From a virus, in IMG/VR virus record IMGVR_UViG_3300023178_001963: a stretch of DNA of 64,000 nucleotides. One strand, given 5' to 3'. Position numbers and translations under genes: made by a program. The first letter of the stretch is position 1. Each line of letters starts with the position of its first letter. Below are positions 9,073 to 38,937 of this stretch, one piece after another. The notes below the pieces were generated by a model. That model saw only the letters and a list, made by a program, of their open reading frames with translations, was not told where the DNA came from and made no database searches.

Positions 9073-9747
9073 TTAGTTTACTTGTATTGTTATTGTATAA
9101 TCTATCACTATCGTTCTATTTGCTGAAAGTAAAACTGGATGGAATGTTACATGTGTCAGCATTATTGTCTTGTCTTCGTCAAGTTCATTGCCGTTCTTAA
9201 CACCACTTAATAGTCCAATCTCATCAAATGTAAATGCTCTAACACTATCCATATCAGGTGAACTATCCGATACAGGCAAAGAAAGATTAGGGTCTACTGC
9301 CTGTACAGCAGCCTCATAATCTGTATGAGATATTTCAACTGAACATAGTATCTTTGCTGTATTCGCTGGAACAACTTCACCATTTCCCATGTCTTGTCCA
9401 GCATGAAATACTGTATTTACAGTCTCTTGTTCATATGTTTTAGCATATAATGTTGAGTTACTAGAAGTTATAGGAAGTTGATCGTATGTACCAAATACTC
9501 TTGGCGCACGATAAGAAAGCGCAGTTGTTGAATTAGAGCCGCCGTTACCGAATGCTAACCAATTAACAACGGGTGGGGCACCATTACTATTAACGCTTGT
9601 TGGATGACCGCCTAAGGCAGAAGCAAGAGCATATGCCATATTACCAGGATGAATGGCATTCTTCTTTTGAAGAAGAACTTTTCCACTATCCTTGTCATAA
9701 ATTTTTATTGTCCCTATGATTTGGGACTTTACATCATCTTTAAACAT
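9073..9747 (-). CDS. Putative baseplate/tail-fibre attachment protein
   Basis: KKNAIH..AFGNGG..FTFDEIGL..LTHVTFHPV..IDYTITI pattern; late promoter upstream. Confidence 0.6.
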   Translation of the reverse strand: MFKDDVKSQIIGTIKIYDKDSGKVLLQKKNAIHPGNMAYALASALGGHPTSVNSNGAPPVVNWLAFGNGGSNSTTALSYRAPRVFGTYDQLPITSSNSTLYAKTYEQETVNTVFHAGQDMGNGEVVPANTAKILCSVEISHTDYEAAVQAVDPNLSLPVSDSSPDMDSVRAFTFDEIGLLSGVKNGNELDEDKTIMLTHVTFHPVLLSANRTIVIDYTITIQVN

Positions 9748-22900: not shown

Positions 22901-24241
22901 AACATTTGTACCAAGTGTTAGTGGGAAAATATTATAGTCTTGTGCGTTTACCATTCTGTCTTGTGAATAATAAGCACGTGGAGCAATACGTCTTACACTT
23001 TCAAAAGTTTCGCCGGCATAGTTTTCGGAGAAATCTCTTGTAGTTGTTAGCGTAACTGTAAGTGCATAATTTCTACCATCTGCTCCAATATACGGGATAG
23101 TAACACTTGCTTCGGGTACATCATTTCCGTTTACAGTAAAGTTTTCATTGTCTGTTTTACGATACCAAACACGATAGTTACCAAAAGGAGCATTACCAAA
23201 GATGCCGTCAGGCCAGTTGATTTGAATAGAGTTATCTATGTTAGTTGTGACACTAGCTAGATCACCATTTCCGTTTCTTAGAGAATTATAAATTGCTGTT
23301 TCTCTACTGTCATTATCTACAACAGATACACTAGAAACATAATTATTTTCATTATCTAATCTTTGAATCCAAACATCTGAGTTACTAATATTCGTATCGT
23401 TTAAAATCTGAACACGATTAGATAGTCTTTTTGTATAACTTAAATTTTCAAAAGCAAGTTCGCCTAGTTTTGTGAAGATAAAGAAACCTGTTCTATCAGA
23501 AGCTGGACCAAGATTGTCATCTCTATTAACAATTGTAAAGTTTTTAGTAGGAATAGGTTCTGCTTCTATTACGTTGTCTCCGTCAAATTCAGCACGTACG
23601 GATTCAAATCTTCTACTCGCACCTGCTACATTTGCTGAGAATGGGTAAGTAATACTCTTAGCTATTCTGTTTTCATTAATTTCGTATAGACTATTCTCTA
23701 TACCAAACGCTGTCATATTCGCAATAGGGTCTTGAATTTTTGAATTCTTTGTGAAAGAAGCGTCTAAAATTGTAATAAAGTTTTCATACCAGTTAACGTC
23801 ATTAGCATCATTCCAGTTAACAGTAGTATTAGCAAGAGAATTCCCTTCATTATCAGTAACATCTTGTGATGTAGTAACACTTGTGATTTTCATATAACCA
23901 CGAGCATTGATAGGTCTTGTTTTAATATAGCCAAGATTTTTTGCTAGTCTTAGTACAGACTCACGGCGTTCTGCTAAATCTAAGAAGTTTTCACGGGTAT
24001 TCATATCAAGTCTAAATGATAGTGAATGTCCTAAATACGCAACAATATCTAAGATAGCAATAAATTCTGAACTAGCAATGTAGTCATTATATTTGTCAGG
24101 ATATGTTTCCTGTACATATAATAGTAATGCTTCTCTGATAGTATCAAAGTCATATGCTTTTAAACTAATGTTTGTAAATGCTGTATAAACAGCACTCCAA
24201 CTCTCGCCCGCAAATAAATTGTCAACTCTTTCCTGACCCAT
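19916..24241 (-). CDS. gp6: Baseplate wedge subunit, T4 gp6-like
   Basis: YDFDTIREAL..SEFIAILD..ENFLDLAERRESVLRLAKNLGY; QDRMVNAQDY; follows gp25. Confidence 0.85.
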   Translation of the reverse strand: MGQERVDNLFAGESWSAVYTAFTNISLKAYDFDTIREALLLYVQETYPDKYNDYIASSEFIAILDIVAYLGHSLSFRLDMNTRENFLDLAERRESVLRLAKNLGYIKTRPINARGYMKITSVTTSQDVTDNEGNSLANTTVNWNDANDVNWYENFITILDASFTKNSKIQDPIANMTAFGIENSLYEINENRIAKSITYPFSANVAGASRRFESVRAEFDGDNVIEAEPIPTKNFTIVNRDDNLGPASDRTGFFIFTKLGELAFENLSYTKRLSNRVQILNDTNISNSDVWIQRLDNENNYVSSVSVVDNDSRETAIYNSLRNGNGDLASVTTNIDNSIQINWPDGIFGNAPFGNYRVWYRKTDNENFTVNGNDVPEASVTIPYIGADGRNYALTVTLTTTRDFSENYAGETFESVRRIAPRAYYSQDRMVNAQDYNIFPLTLGTNVVEKAKAINTSFAGNSRFFEMDDPTGHHSNVSVTGTDGSVYIDDDIITMNLPFNRANGNSDDFIRNVMSEVIKHPSLINLYFYNYMFNVDSVITTPKLNFNVSPTNKKVIEVISTDTESQTVLYPGDHILTVGTEELEETWTTIYGTTVSETGDSIDTFIINDIIPEMSGSISKVVRGYRTRFEDIEIQNIKQEKIEDLSVDSFKIKYIPEPDTNKWAWYVHDDVTEPELIDGEDVFITFTYKAGARQNEAEYVAKFTGKKVVFESEDQVKFFYSNNKFIVDNETNLIERDIILFNYYNTITSGGQAQTTGEDMIVNIGTAPVTNVVDNNGTITFDGVYKNTGAELTNDFVENMNCYNPTSTRHVLVSPVGLEYPVTPTSPSSTTVIGNSPSYTVSYELDNASEIVGTVIDTGENPAVETTNEYVYSINPAVISEEIDSCTSAKSYTTTYNEVQLTDNSFKGKVSTQYFNQAQSSNNFVWIDENHLPTGETLDTAVAPMVGVQTEYFIQNNGGVYTFTFPDMVQDGWTIDNLDGDIRWKQFAYGEANFSSTQSITADNIIIKDPSGTIIDNAHTEFRKNGNDHKIIFWTINPGIGSVLDIFIAGSGDADLTTFTVRVERTVEEVSTIQTAVETYDEIESYIYDEFITNEGYVDYHKVKLYASDTSRDPHGVLQVFVNVDSSNSLSDIGDVSILEFTHIVLETYMVDGKTYERVSDSVIAYDENTNDEIPKTALIRFLIEPTATDLEDGIWQKRVAGVWTTNFDYVDIAPGKIEYDGVKYRVVNGRSYVEDKFMSFRWDHFADEDKRIDPSTSNIVDIYVLSADYVRRVNTWISNGFSEVIPQAPNNYELRKMMESIEPKAMISDHISYIPVKFKYLFGKYAHPENQAVFKVVKKPETAFTDSEIKTAVSAAVNEFFDIDNWDFGETFYYSELASYIHNKLPNHISSVVITPKYETTQFTNLLSISSEPTEIFLSVTTSEDVKIISNIVSDELVGE

Positions 24242-35552: not shown

Positions 35553-36149
35553 ATGGAAAACAAACGTGTACTAATAACAGGAAATAGAGACTATGGACTT
35601 TGTAAAGCGATATGCGATCTTTTTGATACTGTGGGTGGTATTGATTATAGTGCTTGTAGTAGGAGCACTGGCTGGCAGCTAGACAAATCTGACGAACAGG
35701 ATAGACTAGCACAAAAATTTATTGACGATGATTTCAATGTATTCATCAATAATGCAGCACTTTGGAAGTACCAACAAACTCTTATCTTAGAAACGTTTTA
35801 TACAAAGTTACTAGAAGAAAAACGAACGGCGCACATTATAAGTATGGGTTCGACAGCAGATACTGGTGTTAAGGGTAGAACATGGCGATACCCAACTGAA
35901 AAGAAATCACTAAAGGTATACAACAGAGACTTAACTTATATGACTATCGGCGGTTCAAATGTCAAAACAACACTTTTATCTCCGGGTAGCTTAACAACAC
36001 CAAGTGTAGTTAAGAAGCATCCGGATAGAAAACTAATAGATGTTGAATACATAGCTGAAGTTATTTTATGGTTGATTCAACAACCAGATTATGTTAATAT
36101 CAATGAGATTAGTTTAGATCCAATTCAATCTGGACATTTCGCAAGATAA
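35553..36149 (+). CDS. Short-chain dehydrogenase/reductase
   Basis: VLITG..YGL, FINNA, SMGS, YxxxK (YPTEK), SPG. Confidence 0.8.
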   Translation: MENKRVLITGNRDYGLCKAICDLFDTVGGIDYSACSRSTGWQLDKSDEQDRLAQKFIDDDFNVFINNAALWKYQQTLILETFYTKLLEEKRTAHIISMGSTADTGVKGRTWRYPTEKKSLKVYNRDLTYMTIGGSNVKTTLLSPGSLTTPSVVKKHPDRKLIDVEYIAEVILWLIQQPDYVNINEISLDPIQSGHFAR

Positions 36150-36159
36150 AGGTGAACAT

Positions 36160-37956
36160 TTGTTAAAAATTAAGAATATTACTATACGTAATTTTATGAG
36201 CGTAGGTAATGTAACACAGGCTATTGACTTACAACGTGATAATCTAACTCTTGTTCTAGGTAATAACTTAGATTTGGGAGGTGATGGATCACGTAATGGT
36301 ACAGGTAAGACAACACTTATCAATGCTTTATCGTATGGATTGTACGGTAACGCACTAACAAACATCAAAAAAGATAATCTAATTAACAAAACTAATAGTA
36401 AAGGTATGTTAGTAACTGTTGATTTTGAATATAATGGAAGTGAATTTAGAATTGAACGTGGTCGTAGACCTAACGTTTTTAGATTAATACGTGATGGAGT
36501 AGATGTAAATGAATCACAAGATGAAGCACAAGGTGAAATGCGTCAAACACAGGTGGAAGTTGACTCTATTATTGGTATTTCACATGGTATGTTTAAACAT
36601 ATTGTTGCGCTGAATACGTATACAGAACCTTTCTTGTCAATGAGAGCTGGTGATCAACGTGAAATTATTGAAGAATTATTAGGTATTACTGAGTTATCTC
36701 GCAAAGCAGATAAACTAAAAGACGATATCAAAGACACGAAAGAACAAATGAAAGAAGAAGAATATCGATTAAAATCTATCGAAGAGGCTAATCAACGTAT
36801 TCTTAAATCTATCAAGGATATTGAACGTAGACAACGTATCTGGTCAGAGAAACATGAAAAAGAATTATCAGATTTAGAGTCTGGTTTAGATTCTTTATCT
36901 CACATTGATATTGATACTGAAATAAAAAATCAATCATTGTTATCAGAATACAACGAAAAGAAAACACGTTTAGACGAAGCAGTAAAATGGATTAACAGTA
37001 TTGATACTGAGAATATCAAACAACACAAAGTAATAGAAAAACTAGATGCTGAAATTTTAATGCTGAAAGAACACAAGTGTTATGCTTGTGGTCAGGAAAT
37101 GCATGACAGTAAACAAGAAAGTATACTTGCTTCTAAAGAAGAACAAAAACTAGAAGCAGCTAAAACACTGGAAGAAAATAATGTAAGATATAAAGAGTAT
37201 ACTAGTGTAATAGATGATATCGGTGATTTAGGAGATAAACCTGAAGTATTCTACAATTCTTTACAAGATGCGTATGAACATCAAAATTCTGTAAGAATGT
37301 TACAAGAACAAATCGATAGTAAAAGAAAAACAGAAGACCCTTATTCAGAACAAATCAAAGATATGCGTGACAGTTCACTAGAAGAACTAGACTACACAAC
37401 TATGAATAGTCTATCGTCTTATAAAGACCATCAGGAGTTCTTACTAAAGTTACTTACAAATAAAGATAGTTTCATACGTAAGAAAATTATCGATCAAAAC
37501 TTATCTTATTTGAACAACCGTTTAGATTTCTACTTAGAAAAGTTAGGTCTACCACACGAAGTCAAATTCCAATCTGATTTGTCAGTTGAAATTACCGAAC
37601 TTGGACGTGACTTAGACTTTGATAACTTATCACGTGGAGAACGTAACAGACTTATTCTTGGACTTTCATGGGCATTCCGTGATATTTTTGAATCACTTTA
37701 TTCGACAATCAATGTTATGTTTGTTGACGAACTTATTGACAGCGGTATGGATTCAAATGGAGTTGAAGCATCACTAGCAGTTCTTAAGAAGATGGTACGT
37801 GATAGAGGACGTTCACTGTTCTTGGTATCACACCGTGAAGAACTTCAAGGTCGAGTAAGTGATGTGCTAAATGTTATAAAAGAAAACGGCTTTACTACTT
37901 TCACACAAGAAGAAGAAATGGTAGAACCTGGTGTAGAACTGGAAACTGTAATATGA
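36160..37956 (+). CDS. gp46: Recombination endonuclease ATPase (Rad50/SbcC-like)
   Basis: Walker A NGTGKT, zinc hook CYAC, signature LSRGE, Walker B FVDE, VSH; TTG start. Confidence 0.93.
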   Translation: MLKIKNITIRNFMSVGNVTQAIDLQRDNLTLVLGNNLDLGGDGSRNGTGKTTLINALSYGLYGNALTNIKKDNLINKTNSKGMLVTVDFEYNGSEFRIERGRRPNVFRLIRDGVDVNESQDEAQGEMRQTQVEVDSIIGISHGMFKHIVALNTYTEPFLSMRAGDQREIIEELLGITELSRKADKLKDDIKDTKEQMKEEEYRLKSIEEANQRILKSIKDIERRQRIWSEKHEKELSDLESGLDSLSHIDIDTEIKNQSLLSEYNEKKTRLDEAVKWINSIDTENIKQHKVIEKLDAEILMLKEHKCYACGQEMHDSKQESILASKEEQKLEAAKTLEENNVRYKEYTSVIDDIGDLGDKPEVFYNSLQDAYEHQNSVRMLQEQIDSKRKTEDPYSEQIKDMRDSSLEELDYTTMNSLSSYKDHQEFLLKLLTNKDSFIRKKIIDQNLSYLNNRLDFYLEKLGLPHEVKFQSDLSVEITELGRDLDFDNLSRGERNRLILGLSWAFRDIFESLYSTINVMFVDELIDSGMDSNGVEASLAVLKKMVRDRGRSLFLVSHREELQGRVSDVLNVIKENGFTTFTQEEEMVEPGVELETVI

Positions 37957-38276: not shown

Positions 38277-38305
38277 TTGACATTATTAACGAATCGTACT
38301 ATATA
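38277..38305 (+). promoter_or_regulatory. sigma70-type early promoter with CGAATCG in the spacer
   Basis: TTGACA 38277, CGAATCG 38290-38296, TATATA 38300. Confidence 0.65.
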
Positions 38306-38335
38306 TAAGATATCAGAAACATTAAGGAAAGTAAA

Positions 38336-38590
38336 ATGTCAGAAGAACCATTTAAAGTATATAAAGCACACAAGATGCTAGACTGGATTGAGGGTCATGT
38401 CACGGAATGGGCATATGGTTTGATCCAAGAACATTTTGGTGTAGAAAGCCCAAGCGAACTTAGCCGGGAACAACTAGACGAAGTTATCTCAGAGTGGGAA
38501 GAAATGTGCGATTATGACGGCATGCTTGCTCTAGGTTTCCGTAATGCTATTGGTGAATGGGAAAACGAAAATGATGAATATTTAATTTAA
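38336..38590 (+). CDS. Hypothetical early protein
   Basis: TAAGGA RBS, own promoter, 84 aa. Confidence 0.75.
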   Translation: MSEEPFKVYKAHKMLDWIEGHVTEWAYGLIQEHFGVESPSELSREQLDEVISEWEEMCDYDGMLALGFRNAIGEWENENDEYLI

Positions 38591-38597
38591 AAAAGTG

Positions 38598-38626
38598 TTG
38601 ACAAGCGAATCATAATATGCTATAGT
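38598..38626 (+). promoter_or_regulatory. sigma70-type promoter TTGACA-17-(TGc)TATAGT with CGAATCA in the spacer
   Basis: TTGACA 38598, CGAATCA 38606-38612, extended -10 TGCTATAGT. Confidence 0.8.
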
Positions 38627-38632
38627 AATATT

Positions 38633-38745
38633 ATATAAGGAAGTTAGTGTCTCCTCTCACCTCTCTCATCACTACTAGCTTCTTTATAGTTTCAACACAG
38701 AGCATGAAACTAACCCGGTGCAGTCATGCATCGGGTTTTTCTTTT
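38633..38745 (+). ncRNA. Candidate small RNA (~110 nt) with CU-rich anti-SD loop
   Basis: Lies between a promoter and an intrinsic terminator; 12-bp stem 38637-48/38674-85 enclosing CUCCUCUCACCUCUCUC; 8-bp stem 38687-94/38705-12. Confidence 0.65.
38713..38745 (+). terminator. Intrinsic terminator
   Basis: ACCCGGTGCA-GTCA-TGCATCGGGT then TTTTCTTTT. Confidence 0.85.
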
Positions 38746-38760
38746 AAATGGAGTTTAATA

Positions 38761-38937
38761 ATGAGCATTACACGGGCACAATCACCAAAGTTAGAAAAAG
38801 AACGTGAGGAAGCAGATAAAGCTATAAAAGAATTTCTAAAAAAAGGTGGTAAAATTAAAAAGATACCAGACGGTGTACACACCGAAGCGAAAGATATGAA
38901 GTACAAATATCGTAGAGGTGCTAAAAAGAAAGAATAA
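38761..38937 (+). CDS. Small basic protein resembling the SutA RNA-polymerase-binding domain
   Basis: GGAG RBS before ATG 38761; KEREEADKAIKEFLKKGGKIKKIP resembles recalled SutA KERDALAKAMEEFLSRGGKVQEIE. Confidence 0.6.
   Translation: MSITRAQSPKLEKEREEADKAIKEFLKKGGKIKKIPDGVHTEAKDMKYKYRRGAKKKE

Follow-up and report, generated by a model that had tools for sequence, protein, structure and literature searches.

A conserved small RNA family with a C/U-rich loop in uncultured T4-like jumbo phages, and its possible anti-Shine-Dalgarno role

What is made from a gap of 170 bases between two small phage genes, and on what might the product act? The gap extends from the stop codon of an 84-aa gene (38590) to the ATG of a SutA-like gene of 58 aa (38761), in the DNA of an uncultured virus. 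It holds a complete small transcription unit, read in a first-pass annotation as a phage small RNA (sRNA) that displays an anti-Shine-Dalgarno loop. The window, meaning the whole stretch of 64 kb that was analysed, belongs to a 65-kb fragment whose completeness is estimated at 18%. T4-type genes are present in it, for a gp46/SbcC-like nuclease subunit, a PDDEXK resolvase and baseplate hub proteins. The closest cultured phages, as judged by gp46, are the Pseudomonas jumbo phage PA5oct (52%), Agrobacterium and Sinorhizobium jumbo phages (45%) and Yersinia and Vibrio jumbo phages (∼44%). Two related contigs of ∼342 kb are complete or nearly so, one of them with terminal repeats, and DNA of the window's virus is present in runs labelled as salt-marsh metagenome. 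The 64-kb window contains no tRNA or tmRNA genes.

A compact transcription unit downstream of gp46

The unit consists of a promoter, a stem-loop, a second stem and an intrinsic terminator (Table 1). A promoter scan and a predicted fold recovered all of these elements where the first-pass annotation had placed them. Both of the stems that it described exist, with corrected lengths: in the predicted fold the one given as 12 bp has 15 bp, and the one given as 8 bp has 7 bp. The promoter agrees with the consensus at 11 of 12 positions and is the top-ranked promoter-like site of the 6 kb scanned; from it, transcription is predicted to start near 38633. A GANTC site (CGAATCA, 38606-38612) is located in the promoter spacer; it is kept in 2 of 19 promoter variants and is therefore no family feature of this promoter.

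Table 1. Coordinates of the sRNA unit, the adjacent gene and the start regions discussed in the text
Feature	Position	Strand	Description
gp46 start region, best conserved candidate target	36135..36162	+	UUG start; GAGAGAGGU or a close variant in 10 relatives
Sigma-70-type promoter, extended -10	38598..38626	+	TTGACA 38598-38603, 17-nt spacer ending in TG, TATAGT 38621-38626
Predicted sRNA, ∼113 nt	38633..38745	+	From the fold; match of covariance model R1 at 38626-38742, 82.9 bits
Stem-loop 1	38635..38687	+	15-bp stem including G-U pairs, 38635-38649 with 38673-38687 (predicted fold)
Apical loop, candidate seed	38650..38672	+	23 nt, solely C, U and A; UCUCCU tract in the 5′ half, ACCUCUCUC tract in the 3′ half
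Hairpin 2	38688..38711	+	7 bp, 38688-38694 with 38705-38711; 10-nt loop with CAGAG
Intrinsic terminator	38712..38747	+	11-bp G+C-rich stem 38712-38737, then U-tract to 38747
SutA-like gene, 58 aa, K/E-rich	38761..38937	+	Pfam SutA-RBD, 28.9 bits against a cutoff of 29.3
Candidate target site (inferred), 749-aa gene beside the baseplate hub genes	41440..41447	+	AGAGAGGU, 4 nt before the ATG at 41452; 8-nt complement to the loop 3′ half
AGGAGAC, start region of the 286-aa gene at 45857	45844..45850	+	Complement of the loop 5′ half; conserved in 8 contigs

The fold of this locus is more than chance. The minimum free energy (MFE) of positions 38633-38750 is -37.2 kcal/mol, compared with -17.9 ± 3.0 in 200 shuffled sequences (z = -6.46), none of which folds as well. 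The loop sequence occurs once in the window, where model R1 likewise has one match. No conserved open reading frame runs through the sRNA, the frames ending after 8-40 codons in most variants. A coding reading was considered for a GTG-initiated frame that reaches the SutA-like gene. It was rejected because this frame, open solely in the window and in variant L002, closes after 11-40 codons elsewhere.

In four metatranscriptome runs, the assembled contigs span the neighbouring genes with a depth of 3-6. No discrete sRNA is found among these low-depth assemblies, which carry no ends, strand or level; since such contigs cannot display ends or strand, they argue neither for nor against the sRNA. 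One of them, X17 (depth 4.6, positions 38331-38674), spans the sRNA promoter and links the 84-aa gene to loop 1, which suggests read-through from an upstream promoter at 38277. The sRNA may therefore double as the 3′ end of the upstream mRNA, DNA carry-over being the other possibility for X17.

An sRNA family confined to one phage clade

Relatives of the element were collected through four samples, two based on DNA patterns and two on gp46 similarity, with two of the samples independent of the loop sequence. Together they define a family in ∼49 uncultured viral contigs, with one copy per genome in the identical place after the gp46 recombination-nuclease gene. A search with the loop pattern returned 35 contigs, each with the full architecture. 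A 16-nt pattern from hairpin 2, in which the loop did not serve as bait, returned three variants in 12 viral contigs, all with an equal promoter, stem, loop and terminator. The samples chosen by gp46 added variants in which the loop is one CU longer (L067/L068) or one CU shorter (L069-L072). They also added divergent members (L160-L164, L168/L169) with different loops, in which two C/U tracts are split by A residues and a CUCUC core is kept. Members score 23-126 bits with covariance model R1, again with one copy per genome, the complete genome included. In G003 a second, weak R1 match (29.6 bits) proved to be merely a terminator. The complete genome G001, the contig of locus L045, belongs to the window's clade and has 342,607 bases with direct terminal repeats; it is well suited as a reference for predicting targets genome-wide, and its single sRNA copy is located at 183859-183976.

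The surroundings of the sRNA are equally regular. A promoter of the type TTGAC[A/T], 17-18 nt, TG-n-TAnnnT lies directly 5′ of it in all 28 distinct variants, and in most relatives the predicted transcript measures 106-127 nt. In locus L169 (3717-3878), an insertion of ∼45 nt between stem-loop 1 and the terminator adds a further hairpin and brings the sRNA to ∼157 nt. Synteny is fixed, with gp46, an optional 84-aa gene, the sRNA, the SutA-like gene and an optional gene for a small membrane protein in that order, and with the resolvase, a large structured RNA and the hub genes on the opposite strand. Homologues of the SutA-like protein are encoded 3′ of the sRNA in most contigs (33-74% identity). 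In G007, the contig of the divergent locus L163, the gp46 reading frame (C1:16149-17942) contains one in-frame TAA, which may be a sequencing error, a pseudogene or a case of recoding.

Beyond this clade the searches came back empty. Model R1 had no match among the 74 sister-clade loci of the first gp46 sample (gp46 55-60% identical), nor in the sister-clade loci of the second (gp46 54-62% identical). In 18 sister-clade loci of that second sample, checked by eye or by pattern, no unit of promoter and C/U loop follows gp46. A full R1 search of the cultured relatives PA5oct, Vibrio phage 2.275.O, Atu_ph07, Phosso and fHe-Yen9-03 gave terminator-like noise alone, with E values above 0.18. The window variant and the majority variant had no blastn match in 50,697 GenBank phage records. 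In a collection of bacterial and archaeal genomes, the loop pattern found 12 chance matches in unrelated contexts, with no host copy, prophage copy or long target. By these sequence comparisons, the predicted sRNA is a real, conserved and uncatalogued family of a clade of uncultured T4-like jumbo phages with genomes of ∼340 kb.

The covariation test used a model-guided alignment of 23 distinct sequences. Standard pairs occupy 88.4% of the pair cells, against 35-50% when the partners are slid by one to three columns. Double-sided changes occur in 17 of 26 pairs, and the observed values were reached by none of 500 column shuffles. In helix 1, both sides change in 9 of 15 pairs, with one position seen as U-A, A-U and C-G, and in helix 3, the terminator, compensatory changes affect six of seven pairs and 98.8% of the cells are paired. 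These figures come from an alignment fitted to the model, which favours structure, so separate checks of the structure were needed. Independent single-sequence folds give the identical architecture in 19 variants and in divergent ones. Compensation in stem 1 can be followed by eye, GAUG/CAUC, GACG/CGUC and GAAG/CUUC being interchanged. In relatives, hairpin 2 is shorter, of a UCUC/GAGA type, and covaries as well (UCUCUG/CAGAGA, CCCUAU/AUAGGG, UCUCUAU/AUAGAGA).

The loop itself is predicted to be open, with a probability of being unpaired of 0.94 in the window and of 0.86-0.99 across the 23 variants. Its size varies from 17 to 26 nt in the family, always with a C/U-rich composition. In the main clade it is identical over ∼20 nt among contigs whose gp46 proteins are 68-85% identical and whose SutA-like proteins are 33-74% identical, and it is near-invariant also in members that were found without the loop as bait. 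Judged from these alignments, selection acts on the structure and, more strongly still, on the sequence of the loop. A self-contained non-coding unit with a single-stranded, conserved C/U loop, as the first-pass annotation had proposed, is thus borne out by ∼49 contigs, by covarying stems and by a loop that is near-invariant in the main clade and reduced to its CUCUC core in divergent members.

C/U-loop RNAs and the ribosome-binding sites of the phage

RNAs with exposed C/U-rich loops form a known functional class. In RsaE/RoxS, CcsR/cuckoo and AbcR, such loops pair with AG-rich ribosome-binding sites (RBSs), and the same is documented for the CU-rich regions of LhrC (PMC4132741). The phage sRNA shares this principle, whereas LhrC, RsaE/RoxS, CcsR/cuckoo and AbcR are host-encoded, use motifs of the UCCC or CCUCC type and often have several loops or gene copies. 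AbcR and cuckoo had been cited in the first-pass annotation, and no link to either emerged: an Rfam scan of positions 38550-38800 in evalue mode yielded six matches at E values up to 10, with neither of these families among them and with LhrC, RsaE and CcsR absent too. Across all 64 kb of the window, no family of Rfam 15, which includes AbcR, cuckoo, c4 and Yfr, reaches its gathering threshold, and relaxed Rfam scans of the present element and five relatives gave inconsistent sub-threshold matches alone.

The best of the relaxed matches is to RF02278, the Betaproteobacteria toxic small RNA, with 23.1 bits in the window and 25.1 bits in L034, against a gathering value of 50. The original report on these toxic sRNAs, from 2012, is said to have described an action against ribosome-binding sites. 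Both RNAs are short, end in an intrinsic terminator and contain the 8-nt motif UGUCUCCU. The setting of the motif differs, since in RF02278 it forms the free 5′ end of an RNA of ∼60 nt, whereas in the phage sRNA, of ∼113 nt and with an extra hairpin, it is located in the loop of a 15-bp stem. The RF02278 architecture, a single-stranded 5′ UGUCUCCU followed by a terminator hairpin within ∼60 nt, is not that of the phage element, and the alignment skips 53 nt. RF02278 is also multicopy and chromosomal in Burkholderia and Herbaspirillum, while the phage sRNA is single-copy and phage-borne. With a score under half of the gathering value and a likeness limited to the 8-nt motif and the terminator, membership in RF02278 was rejected. 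Members of that family are toxic when cloned in E. coli, and their native function is not known (PMC4603805, PMC7011215).

Phages themselves provide examples of RNAs acting on initiation regions. SprX (RsaOR), encoded by converting phages of Staphylococcus aureus, blocks the translation of spoVG through a CU-rich loop that pairs with the Shine-Dalgarno and start region of this target (PMC4005690). SprX and the present sRNA are alike in being phage-encoded and in having a CU-rich loop; they have no sequence or structural homology and no relation at the level of Rfam. SprX is carried by a temperate phage and regulates genes of the Gram-positive host, whereas the present sRNA comes from T4-like jumbo phages and fits the phage's own RBSs. 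The c4 antisense RNA of P1/P7 (RF01695) has loops that pair around the RBS of a phage mRNA and block its translation (PMC12197685). It is processed from a longer transcript, has one neighbouring target (icd/ant) and controls immunity; the phage sRNA has no Rfam match to RF01695. Four ncRNAs without an assigned function have been reported for PA5oct (PMC7318152); as possible relatives they were rejected, being located at other loci of the PA5oct genome and unrelated. The class of C/U-loop sRNAs of anti-Shine-Dalgarno type is therefore already known, and the phage family itself is new. The word 'jumbo' does not occur in a review of phage regulatory RNAs (PMC12197685), and regulatory RNAs of large phages that have no prophage record are barely charted. 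A well-bounded family of this kind, supported by covariation and spread over dozens of uncultured giant-phage genomes, merits an Rfam entry.

What the loop could pair with was approached through the RBSs of the phage, surveyed with a crude gene set of 52 ORFs that covers 96% of the window. The most enriched RBS hexamer is AGGAGA, found 50-fold enriched in eight start regions and often extended to AGGAGAC, and a second RBS class, 16-fold enriched, contains GAGAG. The loop complements both of these RBS types, AGGAGA(C) and GAGAGAGG, the two classes being exact complements of its 5′ tract (UGUCUCCU) and of its 3′ tract (ACCUCUCUC), respectively.

The complementarity was then counted across genomes. 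Orthologous starts were aligned over the syntenic 64 kb of five relatives, to which five more contigs were later added, and contiguous Watson-Crick complements to each genome's own loop were counted in 212 orthologous start regions of six genomes, with 2000 composition-matched shuffles of the loop as control. Complements of at least 6 nt are found in 78 of the 212 start regions (37.7 ± 7.7 with shuffled loops, a value reached by 0 of 2000 shuffles), of at least 7 nt in 25 (10.8; 4 of 2000) and of at least 8 nt in 11 (2.9; 2 of 2000), figures that overstate significance because orthologous start regions are not independent. For the window alone the excess is modest, with 6-mers in 17 of 49 start regions against 8.3 expected from shuffles (p ∼0.017), and 7-mers and 8-mers are not significant. 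That the loop is complementary to the GA-rich RBSs of the phage, another claim of the first-pass annotation, thus holds above shuffled controls. The complementarity is nevertheless unspecific, because any C/U loop fits GA-rich Shine-Dalgarno sites. A free-energy duplex scan of the window was uninformative, returning mainly long, bulged pairings rich in G-U, and neither the window nor 596 Gb of bacterial genomes contains a long complement to the loop.

Individual sites deserve attention with the same reserve. The GA-rich sites quoted at the outset are present, namely AGAGAGGU at the 749-aa gene, GGAGAGAG before the 7957 gene and AGAGAG before the 9747 gene; being mostly ordinary Shine-Dalgarno matches, they identify no specific targets. 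As the 749-aa gene has no PHROG match, the label 'tape measure' that had been attached to it is a tentative one. GA-repeat sites are kept across contigs at gp46, at 41452, at 24241 (a baseplate wedge gene) and at 9747, where they overlap ordinary Shine-Dalgarno sites. Orthologues of the 749-aa gene in six other contigs keep sites of the AGAGAG or AGAGG type. The AGGAGAC before the 286-aa gene is instructive in another way. In G006 and G007 the loop is without the GUCUCCU tract, yet AGGAGAC is unchanged at the orthologous start; there is thus no co-variation at this site, which is probably a plain Shine-Dalgarno site as far as the compared sequences go. No compensatory change between sRNA and target was seen in any of the start regions compared.

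The start region of gp46 is the best conserved candidate. Its site could form up to 9 contiguous pairs with the loop (-19 kcal/mol). Ten of the 11 sRNA-bearing genomes compared combine GAGAGAGG with a UUG start. The sister-clade loci checked, which do not have the sRNA, all lack this combination: there gp46 begins with AUG and the motif is absent. The one exception is the window, whose gp46 keeps the UUG start and lacks the GAGAGAGG motif, AGGUGA alone remaining. On the basis of this distribution, the co-occurrence of the gp46 motif and the sRNA is a single clade-level trait, and the sRNA marks the clade alongside this unusual start region. A further reservation about this candidate is that GCAAGAGAGAGGUA, which precedes the gp46 UUG in all sRNA-bearing contigs but the window, doubles as code for the ...FARER C-terminus of the upstream gene product (L159-L169, G001-G010).

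Possible modes of action

Because the complementarity of the loop to the RBSs exceeds that of shuffled loops, an anti-Shine-Dalgarno reading is the best supported one. The strong promoter, of early sigma-70 type, leads directly into the long 5′ stem that holds out the C/U loop, and the small hairpin and the intrinsic terminator close the unit. In trans, the loop tracts UCUCCU and CCUCUCUC, with CUCUC common to all members, would pair with GA-rich initiation regions and keep the 30S subunit off. Fitting sites would be chiefly the phage's GAGAGAG(G)-type RBSs at the genes for the gp46 nuclease, the 749-aa hub-adjacent protein and the baseplate wedge and at the 9747 gene, host messages being possible further targets. 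As the sRNA would be made early, translation of the fitting messages could be held back or tuned, and in the window the sRNA terminator would also limit transcription into the SutA-like gene. We give about an even chance to an early, trans-acting sRNA whose exposed loop hinders 30S binding at GA-rich start regions.

A more far-reaching version, which must be regarded as tentative and rather doubtful, sees in the sRNA an early anti-Shine-Dalgarno mimic of ∼340-kb marine and salt-marsh jumbo phages, with a loop that would have co-evolved with the AGGAGAC and GAGAGAGG RBS classes. In the role of a timer, or of a global re-programmer of translation, it would mask the GA-repeat sites of gp46, baseplate and tail messages, and perhaps numerous messages of the host, until it becomes outnumbered at a later stage of infection. 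If an anti-Shine-Dalgarno action is real, giant phages would tune translation initiation with an RNA of their own, and the sRNA would represent a compact and portable translational repressor module. The timer reading, if true, would mean that an RNA controls the timing of translation, a level of regulation that has not been described in virulent jumbo phages.

The question of whether the element is a free-standing gene or a leader depends on what follows the terminator. The first-pass annotation had offered, as another reading, an attenuating leader for the SutA-like gene. On this view the terminator would be a regulated attenuator of a cis-acting element, with a loop that would either detect a factor or cover the gene's GGAG. 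The element and the SutA-like gene are kept together in most contigs, and in 21 of the 28 variants, the window among them, the stretch from the terminator to this gene contains no promoter, so that transcription must reach the gene by read-through of the sRNA terminator. The remaining 7 of the 28 variants speak against a leader, as a second, full sigma-70 promoter (TTGACA-17-TATGAT/TATAAT) begins 0-2 nt after the U-tail. Five divergent variants (L160-L164) thereby have a SutA-like gene with a promoter of its own, and in L069-L072 the sRNA is kept and is followed by a promoter and a ligase-like gene in place of the SutA-like gene. The element is therefore not always a 5′ untranslated region, and it is kept independently of the downstream gene. 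Its terminator is strong, and compensatory changes maintain the helix (98.8% of cells paired). Neither the MFE nor the centroid fold contains a competing anti-terminator, and the match of the loop to GGAG is merely 4-5 nt long. A leader function is thus quite unlikely. The predicted short non-coding transcript is bounded by its own promoter and a Rho-independent terminator, as read from sequence alone, and has a predicted accessible and conserved single-stranded seed. Its own promoter and its persistence independently of the downstream gene argue for an autonomous gene, whose terminator would incidentally throttle the next gene in most genomes.

If the sRNA acts in trans, its partner could also be a protein or one particular RNA. 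In the former case the invariant pyrimidine loop would be a decoy or sponge that titrates or recruits a protein such as S1, Hfq, a factor of the 16S rRNA 3′ tail or a phage protein. Identity of the loop over ∼20 nt, while phage proteins differ by 15-65%, exceeds what a short seed needs and fits a fixed partner, and the window loop contains UCACCUC, which is identical to a stretch of the 16S rRNA 3′ tail. The lack of sRNA-target co-variation among the start regions compared, and of a long complement in the window or in the 596 Gb of bacterial genomes, points in the same direction. Against a protein partner, divergent loops change much and keep their CUCUC tracts alone, a pattern more typical of seeds for base pairing than of a defined protein site, and the loop fits the RBS repertoire of the phage better than shuffles of the same composition. 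Such a decoy is accordingly considered unlikely, yet it is not as improbable as a sponge or antisense RNA directed at one GA-rich RNA, either a host sRNA or the large structured RNA of the same locus, in place of a general Shine-Dalgarno mask. Two tandem C/U tracts could grip a bipartite GA-rich partner, and the conserved large non-coding RNA is only 1.1 kb away. Positions 39720-40300 hold complements of 6-7 nt at chance level only, on both strands, and in the collection of bacterial genomes none of the exact matches to the loop pattern has a related context, which leaves very little room for a single-RNA partner. The large structured non-coding RNA itself extends from 39826 to 40235, between the resolvase and the hub genes, and metatranscriptome contigs cover positions 39861-40326.
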